A DNA stretch of 47,770 nt from Gammaproteobacteria bacterium (GCA_010030245.1 RGPR01000001.1:1-47770); one strand, 5' to 3'; shown: positions 1,991 to 36,667, counted from the stretch's first letter. Notes: generated from the sequence alone by a model not told the origin. Program-made: numbers and translations.

Positions 1991-3862
1991 ATGCATGTAA
2001 AAAAAATACCTGCCCCTTTCGGGACGTGCTTAGGCCTTGCTCCAGGTAATGTTGCAGTCTATTCTTCGCATGAAGACCCACACCTGCCTGCTTGCTTAAA
2101 AAATCGTGACGACTATCGTAGCTACCTAGATGGTATATTCATGGGCTATAAATGGCAATGTGTGGAATTTGCTCGACGATGGTTGTATATCAATAAACAC
2201 TATATTTTTGCTGATATCAGTATGGCCTATGATATTTTTGAATTACGTTCAGTGAGTAGCACTAAAGATAATACTATATTACCCCTTAAATCATTTAAAA
2301 ATGGTGCTAAACATTGGCCTGTTCCTGGCTGCTTAATCATTTGGGCAGAAGGTGGTTATTTTGAAGATACTGGTCATGTTGCGGTGGTTATGGAAGTGTT
2401 CCCTGATGAAATACATATTATCGAACAAAATGTTGAGCAAACTATTTGGCCTGATGGACAAACTTACTCTCGAAAATTAAAAAGTTTTATCACTGCTGAT
2501 GGCGGATATTTAATTGAAGACCTTATTGATATCAATACTCAAGTTTTAGGTTGGGTTATTCAAACAGCCAACCCCCTACATGCAGAAGTAGTTAAGACCT
2601 CAGACCCTAAACTATTTGAATTAAAGCTGCAAAGTGTCCCAAAAATAGCGAAATATGACACTCCCTGGTTAGAACTAAACAATCCAGATGAATCAGCATT
2701 TGTAAAGAAGATGGGTGGACATAAACTAAATACTTTAGTCCCAGTCCAATATATTTGCATATCAGAAACTGCAGCAAAGGAATTAAAACATGCCACCAAT
2801 GAACTGCATGCGATGTTTATGCACGCAACCTACCATGTTTTGCAAGACGATAAACGTTTAGAAAAATTTAATATTCCACCTGCTCTGTGGCCAAAAATAC
2901 ACCGTTCATGGGAAGAACGAAAAAACCAGATGGTTACAGGACGCTTTGATTTTGCAATGACAGAACGCGGAATAAAGGTATTTGAATATAATGCTGATTC
3001 AGCATCATGTATTTTAGAATGTGGAACAATTCAAGAAAAATGGGCAAATCACTATGATTGTCAAATAGGTCGAAATCCTGGTGTTGATCTGTTCTACCAT
3101 TTAGTGAATGCGTGGCGACACAATCATATAGGCGGCATTTTGCATATTTTACAAGATGATGATCCGGAAGAACACTATCATGCACAATACATGAAAAAAG
3201 CGATTACAGCTGCAGGCATTACTTGTAAAATTATTGTTGGCTTTGATAGCTTAAGTTGGAATAGTGCAGGTGAAGTGATTGACGACGAGCAAATTCCATT
3301 AAAATGCATATGGAAAACCTGGGCTTGGGAAACTGCTTTACAACAAATTCGTCACGAATATACAAAAGAATTATTGAGTGTTGTGCAGGATCAAACAGCA
3401 ACGCCTCGTCTTGTAGATGTATTACTACAAGATAATATCATGGTATATGAACCATTATGGACCTTGATCACCAGTAATAAAGCACTCTTACCTGTCTTAT
3501 GGGAGTTGTTCCCAGATAATCCATACTTGCTGAACGCGCAATATGAAGTTACAGCGGCGTTATTATCAGATGGATATGTCTCAAAACCTTTAGCTGGATA
3601 TGCTGGCGATAACATTCGAATTTTTAGTTCATCTAATATCATCATAAATGAAAGAAACGGCCGATTTTGTCATCAAGATCAGATTTACCAAACTTTTTTT
3701 CAATTGCCAGAACGTGATGGCTACCATATTCAATTAGCAGCTTTTACCGTTGATGGCAAATATGCTGGTGCAACTACGCGAGTAGATAAATCAATCATTA
3801 TTAACACCCACAGTGATATTTTACCGCTTCGTGTAGTAGCAGACAAATGCTACTGCAAATAG
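1991..3862 (+). CDS. gss: bifunctional glutathionylspermidine amidase/synthetase
   Basis: 623 aa, collinear by eye with E. coli Gss (619 aa). N-terminal CHAP amidase: PFGTCLGLAPGNVAVYSS and YKWQCVEFARRW (catalytic Cys). C-terminal ATP-grasp synthetase: TGRFDFAMTERGIKVFEYNADSAS, KTWAWETA, YEPLWTLITSNKALLPVLW, QLAAFTVDGKYAGATTR. Confidence 0.9.
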   Translation: MHVKKIPAPFGTCLGLAPGNVAVYSSHEDPHLPACLKNRDDYRSYLDGIFMGYKWQCVEFARRWLYINKHYIFADISMAYDIFELRSVSSTKDNTILPLKSFKNGAKHWPVPGCLIIWAEGGYFEDTGHVAVVMEVFPDEIHIIEQNVEQTIWPDGQTYSRKLKSFITADGGYLIEDLIDINTQVLGWVIQTANPLHAEVVKTSDPKLFELKLQSVPKIAKYDTPWLELNNPDESAFVKKMGGHKLNTLVPVQYICISETAAKELKHATNELHAMFMHATYHVLQDDKRLEKFNIPPALWPKIHRSWEERKNQMVTGRFDFAMTERGIKVFEYNADSASCILECGTIQEKWANHYDCQIGRNPGVDLFYHLVNAWRHNHIGGILHILQDDDPEEHYHAQYMKKAITAAGITCKIIVGFDSLSWNSAGEVIDDEQIPLKCIWKTWAWETALQQIRHEYTKELLSVVQDQTATPRLVDVLLQDNIMVYEPLWTLITSNKALLPVLWELFPDNPYLLNAQYEVTAALLSDGYVSKPLAGYAGDNIRIFSSSNIIINERNGRFCHQDQIYQTFFQLPERDGYHIQLAAFTVDGKYAGATTRVDKSIIINTHSDILPLRVVADKCYCK

Positions 3863-27744: not shown

Positions 27745-28532
27745 TTATTCTCTTAATCATGATTGGCATTATTGTTGGCATATGCTCTGGCTTAACCGGC
27801 TTAGGTGGTGGTCTCTTTTTAATTCCAACCCTGCTGTGGTGCTTCAAATATCAAGGCATATTGACAAGCCATGCGATGCAAATAGCAAGCAATACCTCTC
27901 TTGCCATTTTATGTTGTACCACCCTCGTTAATAGCTATCAATACCATAAAAATAAACTCATCGATTGGCAAATGGTTAAATCATTTTTACCAGGTTTAGT
28001 CATTGGCATTGGATGCGGCAGCATAGTGGCGAACATTCTAGATACACATGCCCTTGAACAAAGCTTCGGCTTGTTTTTATTACTGATTGTTTTACATCTT
28101 TTATGGCCGCAAAAAAAACAGCAACACAAACACAAAAGCCCAAAACATATCATTTATTTGGCCAGTATCATTACGGGTTTTTTAGCGCCAATGTTTGGAA
28201 TTGGCGGAGGCATATTAATGATCCCATTTTTTCATGCCCAAGGCCTCATCTTACTTGAAGCGATTGGTAGCTCAGTTTTTTGCTTATTACCCATCAGCAT
28301 CATTAGCCTGACAGCAAATACCCTCATAGGCTATCTCAATCATACCTTACCATTTGCGTCAGTTAATACCTTAGGCTACCTTTACTGGCCTGGTCTTTTA
28401 TATATAGCGCCAATGAGCATGTTATCAGCACCCATTGGCATAAAAGCTGCGACAAAAGCAAATCCCCAGTTCATCAAGAGCATGTTGGCATGCATCATCT
28501 TACTCACTGCTATCCAGTTATTAAGGGGCTAA
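27741..28532 (+). CDS. TauE/SafE (TSUP) family anion exporter
   Basis: GICSGLTGLGGGLFLIPTLL and the repeated MFGIGGGILMIPFF motif; 8 predicted TM helices. ATGA overlap with the tolC stop. Confidence 0.8.
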   Translation: MIILLIMIGIIVGICSGLTGLGGGLFLIPTLLWCFKYQGILTSHAMQIASNTSLAILCCTTLVNSYQYHKNKLIDWQMVKSFLPGLVIGIGCGSIVANILDTHALEQSFGLFLLLIVLHLLWPQKKQQHKHKSPKHIIYLASIITGFLAPMFGIGGGILMIPFFHAQGLILLEAIGSSVFCLLPISIISLTANTLIGYLNHTLPFASVNTLGYLYWPGLLYIAPMSMLSAPIGIKAATKANPQFIKSMLACIILLTAIQLLRG

Positions 28533-28929
28533 TCCATTTCAAACAAACCAGGGTCAATGCCGCCGTCAATCCACATAAAACCCCACCCCACGCCCAATCA
28601 ACCAAGCCCATGAATAAGGGGAAGGTTTTGAATAGTGAATAACAGGTTAAATCATATATCCCATAAACCACCCAACCAAAAATAGCCGATTGCCAAATGG
28701 CTTGCCAAGAACTGATTTTGGCATAACTTAAGCCGTAGTAGTTAAGACCAAATACCAAGAGCACATAGACCATAAAAGCAGCAGGCCAAATGGGCAATAA
28801 TTTACCCGCCTCAAGCCTCATCATACTCGAATATGCTGCGTAATAATGCGCTTTTGCGACAAGCGTTAACCATAGGCCATCCAACAGCATCATGATCATA
28901 CAACTCAATACCACCTGAATCATTAACAT
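28510..28929 (-). CDS. DUF2177-family membrane protein
   Basis: MLMIQVVLSCMIMMLLDGLWLTLVAKAHYY...AIFGWVVYGIYDLTCYSLFKTFPLFMGLVDWAWGGVLCG fits the DUF2177 pattern. AGGAG lies upstream of ATG 28929; the track's 26-aa upstream extension was rejected. Confidence 0.6.
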   Translation of the reverse strand: MLMIQVVLSCMIMMLLDGLWLTLVAKAHYYAAYSSMMRLEAGKLLPIWPAAFMVYVLLVFGLNYYGLSYAKISSWQAIWQSAIFGWVVYGIYDLTCYSLFKTFPLFMGLVDWAWGGVLCGLTAALTLVCLKWISPLITG

Positions 28930-29035
28930 TATTTTCTCCTTTTTGCTTATCCTAAACCTAATACAAGAGAAAAAAAAGATGAAGAATTTAAAAAAAAAGG
29001 CTATCATAAATTCTTTTTGAAAAATAAGTTTTTTT

Positions 29036-30820
29036 ATGGAATTTCAACAGCTAAGCCCACAGCACTTACTTCAGGCCATTATTTCAGGCTGTGAAAATTT
29101 AAAACAAGCCCGAAAAAAATTAAATGAAATTAATTTTTTCCCTGTTGCTGATGGTGATACTGGCGATAATATGGCAGCAACCGCAGCCGCCATTATCGAA
29201 AATGCAAGTGTTCAATCCACCATGCATGAAACCTTAGAATCCGTGGCCAATGCCAGTATTCTAGGCGCTCGTGGCAACTCAGGTATGCTATTCTCATCAT
29301 TCTTCAATGGCCTCTACCAAGCTTATTCTAAAACACATAGCTTAACGACGAATCAATTCAGTGACATGCTCCAAAAAGCTGCTAGTCAGGTCCGACAGAG
29401 TCTAATCGACCCCATGGAAGGCACTTTACTGACGGTAGTTGATAGTTGGGCCAAGCTTATCCATGCAAAATCCAAAGAATATACAAATTTCAAAACCCTA
29501 TGCCATGATATCTTACATCCTCTGCATGAAGCTTTACATCAACACTGCCAATATACGCATAAAAATGACGAAAAAGTATTAGATGCGGGTGCGCTTGGTT
29601 TTTATCACTTTGTTGAAGGTTTTTCAAAAGCCTTAGGTGAGCATCAAACTTATACACCCATTCAGACTGAGAGCATTGAGGATTTTTCAATACCCAATCA
29701 AGACCACCAATTTTCAACAAATCCACCCCATAATCGCTATTGTACTGAAGCACTATTGAGAGATGCACTCATCTCCCCCTTGCAATTACAACAACATTTA
29801 CAAGGCTTTGGTGATAGCATCGTGGTCACCGGTCACCAACATTTACAGCGCTTCCATATTCATACCAATGCACCACAAAAAATCTTTGACTCTTTACTAA
29901 ATCTCGGACGTCTTGCGAATCCAAAAGTAGATGATATGCAGCGTCAATTTGATTGCCATATCTGTAAACCCAATCGAATTGCGTTATTAACCGACTCAAG
30001 CGCTGATCTTCCTGTCGATATCATGGATAAACATCAAATTCATTTACTCCCGATTAATATCCATATAGGGCATCACCACTTACTTGATCCCTATAGTATT
30101 GACCCTGCGCATTTTTACCAGAATATTAAGAAAAATCCAGACTATCCAACAACATCAGCTCCAAACCCACTGCAAATTAAAAATAAGTTTAGGGAATTGA
30201 GTCAACGTCACCAAGATGTCATCATGGTGTCTGTTGCAGAAAAATTATCAAGCACCTATGCCTGTGCAACCAATATTGCTAAAGAATTTAACGGTATACG
30301 TGTGCTCAATTCAAAACTCACCTCAGCAGCGCAAAGCCTACTGGTCTATCAAGCTGCAGAACTTATTGCCAATCCCCTACTGGAGGCAGATGCCATTGTT
30401 CAAGAACTTCAAGCTTCGAGCAGTAAAATTGTATTCTTTGTCTTGATCCATAAATTAGATGCCCTCATGCGCTCTGGACGAGTTGACAAAATAAGCGGTA
30501 CTTTTGCCAATTGGGCACGTGTAAAACCCATTTTACGCTTAAACGATGAAGGCCGAGGCAGCATGTACAGCAAAGCATTGACTACCAATAAAGGCTTTCA
30601 ACAACTGTTAAAAGCCATCGATCAAGAAGCTATTCTTCGACAAACTAAACTCAAACATTTTGCCATTGTCCATGCTGGACAAGATGAACAAGCAGCGAAT
30701 TTAGCACAAGCTGCCTCTGATCACTATCAACAAGATGCCCTTTATATTGGTCCTGTATCAGCGGCTATTGGACTTCATGCGGGTGCTGGTTGTATTGGTA
30801 TTGCAGCGATGTTTGAATGA
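29036..30820 (+). CDS. fusion protein: FakA-like DhaL/Dak2 kinase domain + FakA central domain + DegV (FakB-like) fatty-acid-binding domain
   Basis: N-terminal part: FFPVADGDTGDNM, LGARGNSGMLFS, PMEGTLLTV, VLDAGALGFYHFVEGF. Central part: YCTEALLRD...FGDSIVVTGHQHLQRFHIHTN...KVDDMQRQ. C-terminal part: RIALLTDSSADLP, PTTSAPNP, EKLSSTYACA (DegV hallmarks). Confidence 0.8.
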   Translation: MEFQQLSPQHLLQAIISGCENLKQARKKLNEINFFPVADGDTGDNMAATAAAIIENASVQSTMHETLESVANASILGARGNSGMLFSSFFNGLYQAYSKTHSLTTNQFSDMLQKAASQVRQSLIDPMEGTLLTVVDSWAKLIHAKSKEYTNFKTLCHDILHPLHEALHQHCQYTHKNDEKVLDAGALGFYHFVEGFSKALGEHQTYTPIQTESIEDFSIPNQDHQFSTNPPHNRYCTEALLRDALISPLQLQQHLQGFGDSIVVTGHQHLQRFHIHTNAPQKIFDSLLNLGRLANPKVDDMQRQFDCHICKPNRIALLTDSSADLPVDIMDKHQIHLLPINIHIGHHHLLDPYSIDPAHFYQNIKKNPDYPTTSAPNPLQIKNKFRELSQRHQDVIMVSVAEKLSSTYACATNIAKEFNGIRVLNSKLTSAAQSLLVYQAAELIANPLLEADAIVQELQASSSKIVFFVLIHKLDALMRSGRVDKISGTFANWARVKPILRLNDEGRGSMYSKALTTNKGFQQLLKAIDQEAILRQTKLKHFAIVHAGQDEQAANLAQAASDHYQQDALYIGPVSAAIGLHAGAGCIGIAAMFE

Positions 30821-31563
30821 TGCTGAAGCCACTGTTAATCAATCTAATCTTTGCCCATACCCTGATGTTTGGGGTGTGGTTGATTTACAAATATCAAAAA
30901 ATACCGATGATTGCCGATGTCTTTTGGTCCATTGGGATTGCGGCACAAGCATTCATATATTGCTTTTATGCCCACTGCTATCCGCTCTTGTTCATATTGC
31001 TACTCATCTGGGCCTTGCGACTATCAAGCTTTCTCTACTTTACGCGCTTCAAAAAACAACATCTAGACCCACGCTATCAATCAATTGAACAGAATAGTTC
31101 GCAAAAACCTGAACTTTTCTTCTTAGTCAATTTCCAAATTCAGGCTTTTTTACAATGTTTAGTGGCCTCAGTTTGGTTTTTTCTATGCCAAACCTCCATC
31201 CCGCTATTGTTGACCTGCATCAGTGCGTTAATCATTATTACCGGGCTTTGCATTGAAATCCATGCAGACAGAAGTTTAGAGCGCTTTAAACAACATGGAA
31301 AAGGTGTATGCCAATTGGGTCTGTGGCGTTATAGCAGACATCCCAATTATTTTGGAGAACTGTTAATTTGGTTTGGCTTTGCCATCGCTGCCAGTCATTT
31401 TCTTGGCTTTATTTCTCCACTTGTACTGCTTTTGATTATGCGTTTTATCACCGCCCCTTTAAGCGAAAAACTAAGTCTTCAGCATAAAGGTAAGCTTTAT
31501 GCTGAATATCAAAAAGTCACACCCATGATATTGCCATATAAAATATTCTTTGCTAAATTTTAA
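30817..31563 (+). CDS. DUF1295 (steroid 5-alpha-reductase/ICMT-like) membrane protein
   Basis: DPRYQSI..., EIHADRSLERFK, GLWRYSRHPNYFGELLIWFGFAI. ATGA overlap with the upstream stop. Confidence 0.75.
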   Translation: MMLKPLLINLIFAHTLMFGVWLIYKYQKIPMIADVFWSIGIAAQAFIYCFYAHCYPLLFILLLIWALRLSSFLYFTRFKKQHLDPRYQSIEQNSSQKPELFFLVNFQIQAFLQCLVASVWFFLCQTSIPLLLTCISALIIITGLCIEIHADRSLERFKQHGKGVCQLGLWRYSRHPNYFGELLIWFGFAIAASHFLGFISPLVLLLIMRFITAPLSEKLSLQHKGKLYAEYQKVTPMILPYKIFFAKF

Positions 31564-32239
31564 CTCGGGGTTTAAGGCTGCTTAAGCCCCCATCTACAGC
31601 AAGCACTTGTCCTGTTATCCAATTATTTTCGGGATCAAGAAAAAAAGATATGGCATTCACCACATCCTGAATTTGACCAATCCGACCTAATGGATGCATG
31701 GCTTCAGATGCTTTTTTAAACACTTCACTATTGAGCAAACCTTGAGTTAGACGCGTTTGCACAAGCCCAGGACAAATCACATTGAAACGCAGATCACGAT
31801 GGGCATAGGTTGCTGCAGCAGATCGTGCCAAACCAATAATGCCTGCTTTTGCAGCAGCAATGGCTTCATGATTGGCAAGACCAATTTCGGCTGCTGCCGA
31901 AGAAATGAACACCATACTTGCATGTTGCAGATGAGCACCTGCTGCTGCAACGACTGCAAATGAACTGGTCAGAGAGGCATGAATCGCGGCCATATACTCA
32001 TCATAACTGGTTAAATGCGCCGGTTTTAATAACAATGAGCCCGCACAATTCACCACGCCATCCACTGGACCAATTTCAGCAAACAATGCATTTACCGCTG
32101 CAAAATCACAAAGTTCAAGCTGATGATCACAACCCTTTTGTCTTGAAGTCGTAATAAGCTCATGGTCTTGAGCTTGCAATTTATGATAAAGACCTTGCCC
32201 AATATCACTGCTTGCCGCCAAGATAAGGTAACGTGCCAT
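31553..32239 (-). CDS. short-chain dehydrogenase/reductase family protein with atypical motifs
   Basis: NCAG, ISS, AAAKAG, FNVICPGLVQT and a C-terminal ITGQVLAVDGG are SDR-like. However, the Gly-rich loop reads LAASSDIG and the Yxxx-K tyrosine position is Ile (AIAAAK). Confidence 0.7.
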   Translation of the reverse strand: MARYLILAASSDIGQGLYHKLQAQDHELITTSRQKGCDHQLELCDFAAVNALFAEIGPVDGVVNCAGSLLLKPAHLTSYDEYMAAIHASLTSSFAVVAAAGAHLQHASMVFISSAAAEIGLANHEAIAAAKAGIIGLARSAAATYAHRDLRFNVICPGLVQTRLTQGLLNSEVFKKASEAMHPLGRIGQIQDVVNAISFFLDPENNWITGQVLAVDGGLSSLKPRVKI

Positions 32240-33933: not shown

Positions 33934-35691
33934 ATGTCTAACTCCAGTCTTAAACCTAAACTATCTAAACGAATACTTAATCTACTTCGCCCCTTCTGGA
34001 AGATGGCCTTGCTTGGGGTCATTGCCAATATCTTCTATGCAGGTATTGATGCGACTTTTACCTATTTTATGAAACCTTTTTTAGATAAAAGCTTTGTTAA
34101 AGTTGATGTCGACTTTGTTTACCAGATCCCATGGATAGTCCTCGTTGGCATCACGCTTAGAGGTTTTATGGGCGGATTTGGTGGTTACTGTATGACGCAT
34201 GTTTCGCGCTCCATGGTGAATAGCTTAAGGCAAGAAGTCTTTCAAAAATTCTTGCATTTACCTGCACCGGTATTAGACTCAACACCATCAGGCCAACTAC
34301 TCTCAAAACTCCTTTACGATGTGGAACAAGTTGCTCAAGTCAGCGCTGACGCCATCACTGATATTGTCCAAAACACCTGTTTAATCATTGGGTTATTTAG
34401 TGTAATGCTCCTGGTTTCTTGGCAGTTGACCGCTATTTTCATGTTTGCAGTCCCTGCCATCGCCTTTATTGTTCGTTATACAACCAAACGAATTCGCCGT
34501 ATTAGCCGGCAAGTGCAACAATCCATGGGGCAGGTCACTGAAATGGCTAGTGAAAGCATTGACGGATTTCGGGAAATTCGGATGTTTCAAACCCAAGACT
34601 TTGTTAGTAAAAAATTCAATACCGCCGCTGAATCAGCGAAACGTCATGACTTAAAAGCGGCCATGAGCAAAGCACTGAATGTCTTCGGTGTCCAGGTCAT
34701 ATTGGCGATTGCCATGACGGTGATTATTCTCTCCGCCATTGAATTGGCTAAAATGGTCACCATCACAGCAGGTAGCTTTCTAGCCATTACCGCCGCAGGC
34801 ATCCAATTGATAAAACCGATGAAAACCTTAACCAATCTCAATGCAAGTCTGCAACGTGGTATTGCAGGGGCTGAGAGCATTTTTAATTTGCTCGATATCC
34901 CAGAAGAACCCTCAGGCCAAGCTGGTTCAGCGCAAATTGCAAAAGGTGACATTGTATTCAAGGATGTATCTTTTGCTTATCAAGATGAACAATGGATACT
35001 ACATGATTTCAATATGCATATCCCTGCCGGACAAACCATTGCGCTAGTTGGTGCTTCAGGTAGTGGCAAATCAACCTTAATTAATTTACTGCCACGTTTT
35101 TATGAGCTGCAAGCTGGTGATATTTTACTCGATGGACGCTCGATTAAAGCGTGGCCAATCAATAACCTTCGCGCTCAGTTTTCGATGGTCAGCCAACATG
35201 TCACCTTATTCAACGATAGCATCATCAATAACATTGCCTATGGCCAAGAACACCCTAATCGAGACGCCGTGATTGATGCCATCAAACAAGCTGATGCCTT
35301 TGATTTTATTGAAAAACTGCCACAAGGCCTTGATACCCTTATCGGTGAAAATGGTTTCAATCTATCAGGTGGGCAGCGTCAACGCTTAGCCCTTGCCCGA
35401 GCCATCTATAAGAATTCACCTATTTTTATCCTCGATGAAGCAACCGCAGCACTTGATAATCAAACCGAACAACACATCCAACAAGCCTTGGAAAAATTTC
35501 ACCACCAACGCAGCATGATCATCATTGCACACCGGCTGTCCAGTATTCAATTTGCAGACCAAATTTTTGTAATGCATCATGGTAAAATTATTGAACAAGG
35601 CAGTCATCATGATCTACTAAACAAACAGGGCCATTACAGTAAGCTTTATCATGCACAACACTATGAACAAATTGACACAATTCCTGTATAA
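33934..35691 (+). CDS. msbA: lipid A export ABC transporter permease/ATPase MsbA
   Basis: Six-TM domain then an NBD: GASGSGKST, LSGGQRQRLALARA, IFILDEATAALD, IIAHRLS. Directly upstream of lpxK, as in most proteobacteria. Confidence 0.92.
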   Translation: MSNSSLKPKLSKRILNLLRPFWKMALLGVIANIFYAGIDATFTYFMKPFLDKSFVKVDVDFVYQIPWIVLVGITLRGFMGGFGGYCMTHVSRSMVNSLRQEVFQKFLHLPAPVLDSTPSGQLLSKLLYDVEQVAQVSADAITDIVQNTCLIIGLFSVMLLVSWQLTAIFMFAVPAIAFIVRYTTKRIRRISRQVQQSMGQVTEMASESIDGFREIRMFQTQDFVSKKFNTAAESAKRHDLKAAMSKALNVFGVQVILAIAMTVIILSAIELAKMVTITAGSFLAITAAGIQLIKPMKTLTNLNASLQRGIAGAESIFNLLDIPEEPSGQAGSAQIAKGDIVFKDVSFAYQDEQWILHDFNMHIPAGQTIALVGASGSGKSTLINLLPRFYELQAGDILLDGRSIKAWPINNLRAQFSMVSQHVTLFNDSIINNIAYGQEHPNRDAVIDAIKQADAFDFIEKLPQGLDTLIGENGFNLSGGQRQRLALARAIYKNSPIFILDEATAALDNQTEQHIQQALEKFHHQRSMIIIAHRLSSIQFADQIFVMHHGKIIEQGSHHDLLNKQGHYSKLYHAQHYEQIDTIPV

Positions 35692-36667
35692 AGAATGGTA
35701 TCACAAGCCAAAGCCTTCTGGGCTACTTCGTCTATGCTCAGCAGTTTATCGCCCGATTAATAAGCTGCTGCTGCAACAATCCCGCAAAAAACGTCCAAGC
35801 CACTTCCCTATCCCCGTGATTGTTGTCGGTAATTTAACTGTCGGCGGGACTGGTAAAACACCCACAGTCATCGCACTATACGAATACTTCAGTCAAAGGG
35901 GACTAAAAGCCGCCATCGTCACCCGCGCTTATAAAAACACCCTGCAACACTTCCCCCATCAGGTGAGCGCGCAAGACACCGCCTCAACGATTGGGGATGA
36001 AGCCTTGCTGCTTTATCAAAAAACCAAAGCACCCATTTGGATTGCTAAAAAAAGGCTTGAAGCACTTAAAGCTATTCAACAATTAGCGCAAATTGATATC
36101 ATCATCAGTGATGACGGACTGCAACATCTTGCCATGCCCAGAGCACTTGAATGCGTGTTAATTGATGGCACCCATGGTTTTGGTAATGGCTATTGCTTAC
36201 CTGCGGGGCCTTTACGCGAAGACATTTCACGTTTAGCAACCGTTGATTTCATTATCATCAATGGATCATGCAAGCCTTCCCTTGAAACAATATTGTCGCC
36301 CTATCTCAATGATTGCCATCTGATGCAACTAAATAGTAACGATATTTACCCGCTCAACCCAGAGCATCCACCCTTTCAAAAAAATCAGTACTCACTCGCT
36401 GCTTTTGCAGGAATTGGACATCCTGATCGCTTTTTTACAAGTTTAAGCAAAGATGATATACTGTTTACGCCCTATCCATTTCAAGATCATCATCATTTTG
36501 TCAAAAAAGATTTTGATATCCCAGAAACCTGCATTATCATGACGGAAAAGGACGCGGTGAAATGTCGTGGTTTAACAGATAAAGTCATTTATGTGTTACC
36601 TGTAAAGGCTGTTTTACCTGAAATATTTTGGCAAAAACTTCATTTGAAATTGAGTAATATTTTATGA
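35651..36667 (+). CDS. lpxK: tetraacyldisaccharide 4'-kinase
   Basis: PVIVVGNLTVGGTGKTP P-loop, GDEALLL, ISDDGLQH, GNGYCLPAGPLRE. The start could be ATG 35651 or ATG 35663; both overlap the msbA 3' end. Confidence 0.9.
   Translation: MHNTMNKLTQFLYKEWYHKPKPSGLLRLCSAVYRPINKLLLQQSRKKRPSHFPIPVIVVGNLTVGGTGKTPTVIALYEYFSQRGLKAAIVTRAYKNTLQHFPHQVSAQDTASTIGDEALLLYQKTKAPIWIAKKRLEALKAIQQLAQIDIIISDDGLQHLAMPRALECVLIDGTHGFGNGYCLPAGPLREDISRLATVDFIIINGSCKPSLETILSPYLNDCHLMQLNSNDIYPLNPEHPPFQKNQYSLAAFAGIGHPDRFFTSLSKDDILFTPYPFQDHHHFVKKDFDIPETCIIMTEKDAVKCRGLTDKVIYVLPVKAVLPEIFWQKLHLKLSNIL

Follow-up and report, generated by a model that had tools for sequence, protein, structure and literature searches.

A predicted single-chain fatty acid kinase joining FakA and DegV domains in a member of the Legionellaceae

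We have analysed a 47,770-nt stretch of DNA (the window) assigned to a Gammaproteobacteria bacterium (GCA_010030245.1 RGPR01000001.1:1-47770). On its forward strand, positions 29036..30820 make a single open reading frame (ORF) from ATG to TGA that encodes a protein of 594 amino acids (aa). Three consecutive domains were found in this protein by Pfam: Dak2, FakA-like_M and DegV. The first two are domains of FakA and the third is of the type of FakB, the two proteins of the two-component fatty acid kinase (Fak). The features of the ORF are as follows.

29036..30820, + strand: the whole ORF, a single-chain Fak homologue (Dak2, FakA middle domain and DegV), from the ORF itself, Pfam, NCBIfam and full-length homologues.
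29141..29626, + strand: Dak2/DhaL-type ATP-Mg binding domain, aa 36-197 (the fold takes in aa 1-204), from Pfam (E 2e-28), alignment with Streptococcus suis FakA and structure.
29654..29713, + strand: predicted disordered linker between the N-terminal and middle domains, aa 207-226, from a predicted local distance difference test score (pLDDT) of <50 in the AlphaFold2 (AF2) model.
29732..29950, + strand: FakA-like middle domain (FakA-like_M, PF21645), aa 233-305, from Pfam (E 2e-18) and alignment.
29978..30811, + strand: complete DegV (FakB-type) fatty-acid-binding domain, aa 315-592, from Pfam and NCBIfam, alignments and structure.

An original prediction, made from the sequence alone, had placed the N-terminal and central domains of FakA in the first ~300 aa and a canonical DegV domain in the C-terminal part. 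Pfam, NCBIfam and superpositions of the AF2 model agree with it, and all the motifs that it quoted are present in the translation. The Pfam match to DegV (PF02645) has an E-value of 2.7e-60 and covers profile positions 2-278 of 280; the NCBIfam DegV model TIGR00762 scores 226.8 bits against a cut-off of 99.7. Matches to the NCBIfam YloV and FakA_VfrB models are confined to the first ~300 profile positions and stay far under the cut-offs. The same prediction had named an ordinary FakA C domain at the C-terminus as the finding that would overturn it; a full DegV domain was found there instead, and FakA-like_C (PF13684) gave no Pfam match in the 594-aa protein at E<0.1.

The AF2 model, built from 51 homologues, has a pLDDT of 88.9 and a predicted template modelling score of 0.85, with aa 207-226 as its only disordered part; this linker corresponds to the unstructured loop of FakA_L (PMC9136124). 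The N-terminal part of the model superposes on Staphylococcus aureus FakA_N (7rm7) with Z 30.5 and a root-mean-square deviation (rmsd) of 1.6 A over 201 residues, and the C-terminal part on crystal structures of FakB1, FakB2 and other DegV proteins with Z 33-35 and rmsd 2.0-2.4 A over ~275 residues. When the full chain is superposed on S. suis FakA the fit is poor (rmsd ~24 A), a sign only that the domains are arranged differently. Profile comparison (hhalign) of the fused DegV domain with stand-alone FakB gives an E-value of 1e-53. The linker from the middle domain to DegV, ~8 residues, is as long as the one from the middle to the C domain of FakA. These results confirm that the fusion of FakA_N, the FakA middle domain and a bona fide DegV domain is real, and that DegV stands where FakA_C would be.

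The residues on which Fak chemistry depends are known from the two-component enzyme. The ADP-Mg2 site of S. aureus FakA is made by Asn32, Asp38, Asp40, Thr41, Asn82 and Asp185, and mutation of Cys240, His282 and His284 in the middle domain leads to a ~100-fold loss (PMC9136124). In FakB1 the fatty acid carboxylate is held by the network Thr62-Ser95-Ser171-His270, and Arg173 is essential for phosphotransfer (PMC8892158). We mapped these positions by HMMER alignments to S. suis FakA, Bacillus subtilis DegV and S. aureus FakB2, and scored their conservation on a family alignment (A1) of 51 sequences. The six ligands of the nucleotide site (N33, D39, D41, T42, N81 and D183, in the order given above) and the middle-domain cluster (C236, H274 and H276) are invariant in all 51 sequences. 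FakB1 residues T62, S95, S171, R173 and H270 correspond to T373, S405, S480, R482 and H581; S405 and R482 are invariant throughout the alignment, and the other three are kept in 47-50 of the 51.

One further position sets the fused proteins apart. Arg205 of FakB, described as completely conserved, is the centre of a basic wedge that docks into an acidic groove of FakA_C (Glu548) and also contacts the membrane (PMC8892158). A single-chain enzyme is predicted to lose this docking arginine, since FakA_C, its docking partner, is missing from the fused proteins. Leu515 occupies the Arg205 position in the 594-aa protein, and the correspondence of the two columns is confirmed by profile-profile alignment (hhalign). 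Phe, Leu, Val, Ile or Tyr is found at this position in 98 of 104 fused proteins, whereas stand-alone FakBs from two-gene loci have Arg or Lys in 45 of 48. This change from Arg205 to a hydrophobic residue (Phe/Leu), as a signature of fused proteins, is reported here.

Could the fusion be an artefact, in which neighbouring fakA-like and fakB genes were run together by a frameshift or misassembly, or else a decaying pseudogene? The assembly is fragmented (2.1 Mb in 333 contigs, 97% complete) with 5.6% contamination, and matches to the fusion are split between two open frames in two relatives: G107:C42:7136-8930, of the same genus (query 1-356 and 359-594), and G145:C59:1285-3064, of the same family (query 2-201 and 228-592). 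These two splits could themselves be frameshifts, pseudogenes or assembly errors. The one-frame architecture, however, recurs in hundreds of homologues, and an artefact is therefore not the explanation: the single frame with the same ~8-residue junction is present in more than 60 Legionellaceae genomes, complete ones included, and in 147 of the best 150 cluster representatives (see below). The invariance of the Dak2, Cys-His-His and R482 residues also speaks against decay, and in Clostridia the adjacent two-gene forms come with a full FakA_C, a domain that our protein lacks. We regard an artefact as effectively refuted.

From the sequence and the structural model we consider it likely that the product of the ORF is a fatty acid kinase complete in a single chain, which forms acyl-phosphate and feeds PlsY. 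In the mechanism that we propose, free fatty acid, either exogenous and entering via FadL or released by phospholipid turnover, would partition into the inner membrane. The DegV domain would extract it and hold its carboxylate by Thr373, Ser405, Ser480 and His581 under Arg482, while the Dak2 domain would bind ATP-Mg2 via Asn33, Asp39, Asp41, Thr42, Asn81 and Asp183. The Dak2 domain and the Cys236/His274/His276 cluster of the middle domain would then transfer the gamma-phosphate to the carboxylate to give acyl-phosphate, with which PlsY would acylate glycerol-3-phosphate, or which PlsX would convert to acyl-acyl carrier protein (acyl-ACP).

Covalent tethering would substitute in this scheme for the docking of FakB onto FakA_C in the two-protein enzyme, which would explain the loss of the docking arginine. 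Even without its C domain, FakA (as FakA_NL) keeps kinase activity when FakB is given at high concentration (PMC9136124); with FakB tethered, FakA_C should therefore no longer be needed. FakA forms dimers by way of its middle domain, and in the fusion only ~8 residues separate the middle domain from DegV. For these reasons phosphotransfer may occur in trans across the dimer: in FakA_C's place the DegV domain would meet the partner subunit's ATP site, as happens in domain-swapped dihydroxyacetone kinase (DAK). That DegV sits where FakA_C sits, and so faces the partner's ATP site, is probable, though the geometric step is one that we infer by analogy.

The genome is that of a Legionellaceae member carrying the Dot/Icm system, in a genus known from metagenomes only. 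Homologues of the Dot/Icm protein IcmL are present, with the main copies on contigs C283 and C266, and the Gram-negative intracellular host that had been proposed is borne out by them. Apart from these copies, a short match of the IcmL/DotI family (38 bits) lies in the window itself at 20383-20706 (+), and likewise confirms a Dot/Icm lifestyle. The closest homologues of the fusion protein are 63-93% identical to it, and named Legionella proteins 37-44%. Genome-wide there is exactly one match to DegV and one to Dak2, both inside the 29036-30820 ORF, and FakA_C (PF13684) was not found in the genome; since the sole DegV and Dak2 domains are in the fusion, no separate FakA or FakB could be its partner. 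The plsX and plsY partners that the original prediction had suggested looking for are both encoded (PlsX on contig C3, PlsY on contig C307), together with a FadL homologue of the outer-membrane fatty acid channel type and three AMP-binding (FadD-like) enzymes.

PlsB was not found in the genome. Its absence is not special, because PlsB is rare across the sampled class (28 of 400 genomes); it occurs in 3-4 of 22 fusion-bearing genomes, and the idea that these genomes are distinctive for PlsB loss was dropped for want of enrichment. PlsY is present in 21 of the 22 fusion-bearing genomes checked, the exception being a metagenome-assembled genome (MAG) that is 67% complete.

The genes around the fusion may bear on its substrate. 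Three neighbours in the window are listed here, the second and third for context only.

30817..31563, + strand: DUF1295 / steroid-5-alpha-reductase-like membrane protein (Pfam).
28510..29007, − strand: DUF2177 predicted membrane protein, upstream and divergent (Pfam).
31553..32239, − strand: SDR-family (enoyl-ACP-reductase-like) gene, convergent (Pfam).

The start codon of the DUF1295 gene overlaps the stop codon of the fusion (ATGA), and the two are therefore probably co-translated. DUF1295 is found downstream of the fusion in five of the seven Legionellaceae loci examined: the window, L005:5718-6542, L008:5758-6537, L009:6315-7088 (where a DUF2878 gene sits between the two) and L086:3285-4043. 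Its product may be a lipid-modifying partner. Scans for promoters and terminators around the fusion gene gave background levels. The 3' ends of the SDR and DUF1295 genes overlap by 11 nt; the Pfam match of the SDR gene begins at about profile position 60, and its N-terminal nucleotide-binding part looks atypical. Some 3 kb downstream of the fusion, the stretch 33934-36667 (+) holds a gene for an MsbA-like ABC exporter and, after it, lpxK (lipid A 4'-kinase), an ordinary envelope-lipid context.

Outside the Legionellaceae the neighbours of the fusion vary (MFS transporter, plsY, metK or asnB). In one MAG of another gammaproteobacterial family (G206), plsY is the next gene after the fusion, with the same orientation: in locus L106 (G206:C24:2500-6500) the fusion takes up 621-2654 and plsY lies within 2363-3295, followed by a gene of the biotin/lipoate ligase family. 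This adjacency is the one direct genomic link from the fusion to the use of acyl-phosphate. Besides DUF1295, a second and independent link of the fusion to fatty-acid-modifying enzymes, in a different phylum, is found in a Synergistales MAG (CAZFJG010000080.1), where a gene of the cyclopropane-fatty-acid-synthase family (CMAS; L010:2577-3851, +) ends 3 nt before the start of the fusion. In two unrelated gammaproteobacterial genomes the fused gene is adjoined by MFS_1 transporters (L096:61-1389 and L097:3466-4719), an adjacency that recalls the LplT-Aas pairing of a lysophospholipid transporter with an activator.

These neighbours allow for an enzyme with the same kinase chemistry that acts, not on bulk exogenous fatty acid, but on a special or modified lipid carboxylate, with acyl chains that are for example cyclopropanated, branched or reduced. 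The co-translated DUF1295 protein would take part in handling it. The ATGA overlap, the recurrence of DUF1295 in the five Legionellaceae loci and the CMAS-family gene abutting the fusion in the Synergistales MAG are all in line with such a substrate, and FakB isoforms are known selectivity filters (PMC10146087). The neighbourhood is, however, not conserved beyond the Legionellaceae, the carboxylate-binding network is of the generic FakB type and DUF1295 is without an established function; we hold a specialised substrate of this kind to be unlikely, if well short of negligible.

Another possibility concerns physiology. The protein could serve mainly to sense fatty acids or to regulate, in the way that S. 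aureus FakA/VfrB affects the expression of virulence factors, or it could be a recycler of endogenously released fatty acids, with no role in scavenging from the host. Enterococcus faecalis Fak does recycle endogenous fatty acids (PMC12594616), the NCBIfam name for FakA is 'FakA_VfrB', and the three AMP-binding enzymes could activate exogenous fatty acids in place of the fusion. The fusion is also patchy in the Legionellaceae (70 of 201 genomes sampled) and is therefore dispensable for the intracellular lifestyle as such. Recycling, on the other hand, requires the same kinase chemistry and differs in physiology only; no DNA-binding or signalling domain was found in the protein by Pfam, and the FadL homologue offers a route of uptake for exogenous fatty acid. 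We think a sensing or purely recycling role very doubtful. The scavenging of host fatty acids, put forward in the original prediction, is itself something that we infer, and endogenous recycling or a link to DUF1295 is equally open.

Several points weigh against a single-chain kinase that feeds PlsY with acyl-phosphate. Stand-alone FakB must shuttle between the membrane, FakA and PlsY or PlsX, and a tethered DegV domain may exchange its ligand differently, or not with membranes at all, since R205, which also mediates membrane binding (PMC8892158), is missing from it. In the Legionellaceae the conserved neighbour is DUF1295 and not a pls gene, which could mean a more specialised lipid substrate. 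The co-occurrence with PlsY discriminates weakly, because PlsY is near-universal in the class. Finally, no biochemical characterisation of any fused Fak and no discussion of Fak in Legionella was found in the literature searched.

The taxonomic survey for which the original prediction had called places the fusion in the Legionellaceae, in other Gammaproteobacteria, in Trichococcus and in the Synergistales MAG mentioned above. The full-length, single-frame form present in the 70 Legionellaceae genomes is distributed over 22 of 42 genera. Among 400 genomes sampled evenly across the class it occurs in ~15, from many families and at 28-34% identity, and the five gammaproteobacterial fusions from outside the Legionellaceae that were checked all have the three Pfam domains. 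An exhaustive search of 1.84 billion cluster representatives (50% identity) gave 619 matches at E<=1e-30; the 147 mentioned above, among the best 150 representatives, are full-length matches of ~580-640 aa, hence at least 147 clusters. In Trichococcus flocculiformis (Bacilli) the fusion is labelled "DegV family protein" or "DAK2 domain-containing protein". Seeming fusions among the matches in Clostridia, Bacteroidales and Actinobacteria were rejected: their ORFs show adjacent fakB-fakA or fakA-fakB pairs with a full FakA_C.

The fused architecture is thus already catalogued and common, and our protein is one more member. The novelty suggested by the original prediction stands in one part, as no characterised single-chain version was found in the literature, and falls in the other, as the architecture is neither unusual nor new.

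Some Legionella orthologues (P0067 and P0089) are labelled 'lipoprotein'. In the family a near-invariant Cys19 lies in a lipobox-like 'IISGC' (aa 15-19 of the window's protein, P0001; 29078-29092), without signal-peptide features. For an ATP-dependent cytoplasmic enzyme the label is probably spurious.

FastTree trees of each half of the protein show one well-supported branch that divides fused from two-gene forms. The trees are compatible with a single origin of the fusion followed by transfer; they do not demonstrate it, because they are unrooted FastTree trees and the two-gene outgroup is narrow, consisting of gut Clostridia, Bacteroidales and a few Actinobacteria only. Over the large fused family, purifying selection is evident. 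We also considered the fused DegV domain as an intermediate between FakB and FakA_C and rejected this: hhalign comparison with FakA_C gives E-values of 4.8e-5 for the fused DegV and 2.3e-4 for stand-alone FakB, with no meaningful difference between them.

According to reviews from 2023 and 2025, Gram-positive bacteria activate exogenous fatty acids by FakAB, and Gram-negatives by acyl-CoA or acyl-ACP synthetases (PMC10146087, PMC12594616). If our reading is true, the single-chain Fak of about one third of the sampled Legionellaceae and of other Gammaproteobacteria would contradict the view of Fak as a Gram-positive strategy and would add Gram-negative intracellular bacteria to the users of acyl-phosphate-based fatty acid activation. 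The Fak mechanism would also have been put to a natural experiment, in which FakA_C proves replaceable by tethering and one residue, FakB R205 changed to Phe or Leu, marks the shift. A system in one polypeptide would be a simpler structural target than the transient FakA-FakB complex, and annotation would gain over the labels now in use, which are "DegV family protein" and "DAK2 domain protein" and, in error, "lipoprotein". More tentatively, and with slightly less than even confidence, we suggest that Gram-negative lineages (Legionellaceae and, here and there, other Gammaproteobacteria) could have the fused Dak2-M-DegV protein as their main fatty acid kinase. It would be tethered and probably work in trans like DAK, with the hydrophobic residue that replaces Arg205 in permanent interdomain or membrane contact, and by means of it intracellular bacteria of the Legionella type would turn host fatty acid into phospholipid on a route independent of thioesters.

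Among known systems, the fusion is a variant and not a new kind, of a family that is catalogued and biochemically untouched. The same three-domain architecture, with no difference of substance, has been noted in comparative genomics: a passage of bioRxiv 10.1101/2021.02.16.431466 reports Dak2-DegV fusions, citing Erni et al. 2006, and places such fusions near heliorhodopsin genes in Chloroflexi and Firmicutes.

The closest characterised system is the two-component FakA and FakB of S. aureus, S. suis and Streptococcus pneumoniae (PDB 7w7h, 7rm7, 5woo and 4x9x). The fusion shares with it a DhaL-type ATP-Mg2 domain whose ligands are the same, a middle domain containing the Cys-His-His cluster, the DegV fold with the Thr/Ser/Ser/His carboxylate network and the catalytic Arg, and likewise has the downstream PlsX/PlsY pathway encoded. 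It differs in being one polypeptide, in which a real DegV domain replaces the FakB-docking FakA_C with its Glu548, and in the Leu or Phe that the fused proteins have for the docking and membrane arginine R205 of FakB. Its host is a Gram-negative gammaproteobacterium with one DegV in the genome, whereas FakA and FakB belong to Firmicutes, among them Firmicutes with several FakB isoforms. The profile scores reflect these differences: FakA_VfrB (NF038248) scores 120.8 bits against a cut-off of 975, and the FakB1 equivalog (NF038249), whose stand-alone form of ~280 aa is not what we have here, 104.6 bits against 350. The model of the generic FakA family (TIGR03599, YloV or 'DAK2 domain fusion protein') is matched at profile positions 3-297 by the N-terminal 300 residues; its last 230 positions, those of FakA_C, find no match, and this holds the score to 215 bits, under the cut-off of 396.

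A second likeness is to the DAK of Citrobacter freundii, a domain-swapped dimer with DhaK and DhaL in one chain. Both proteins join an EDD-fold substrate domain and a DhaL nucleotide domain in a single chain, and in the AF2 model the N-terminal domain compares to Escherichia coli DhaL with Z 23.6 and the C-terminal domain to DhaK with Z ~16, at 8-10% identity. The fusion, however, has its domains in the reverse order, L-M-K against K-L in DAK, with a Zn-type middle domain in addition. Its substrate is bound by a lipid-binding DegV and not by a DhaK, which has a hemiaminal-forming His; the DAK models TIGR02361 and TIGR02365 score 36.7 bits (cut-off 575) and 32.4 bits (cut-off 138). By analogy, the likeness to DAK suggests that phosphotransfer in the fused kinase takes place in trans across the dimer.

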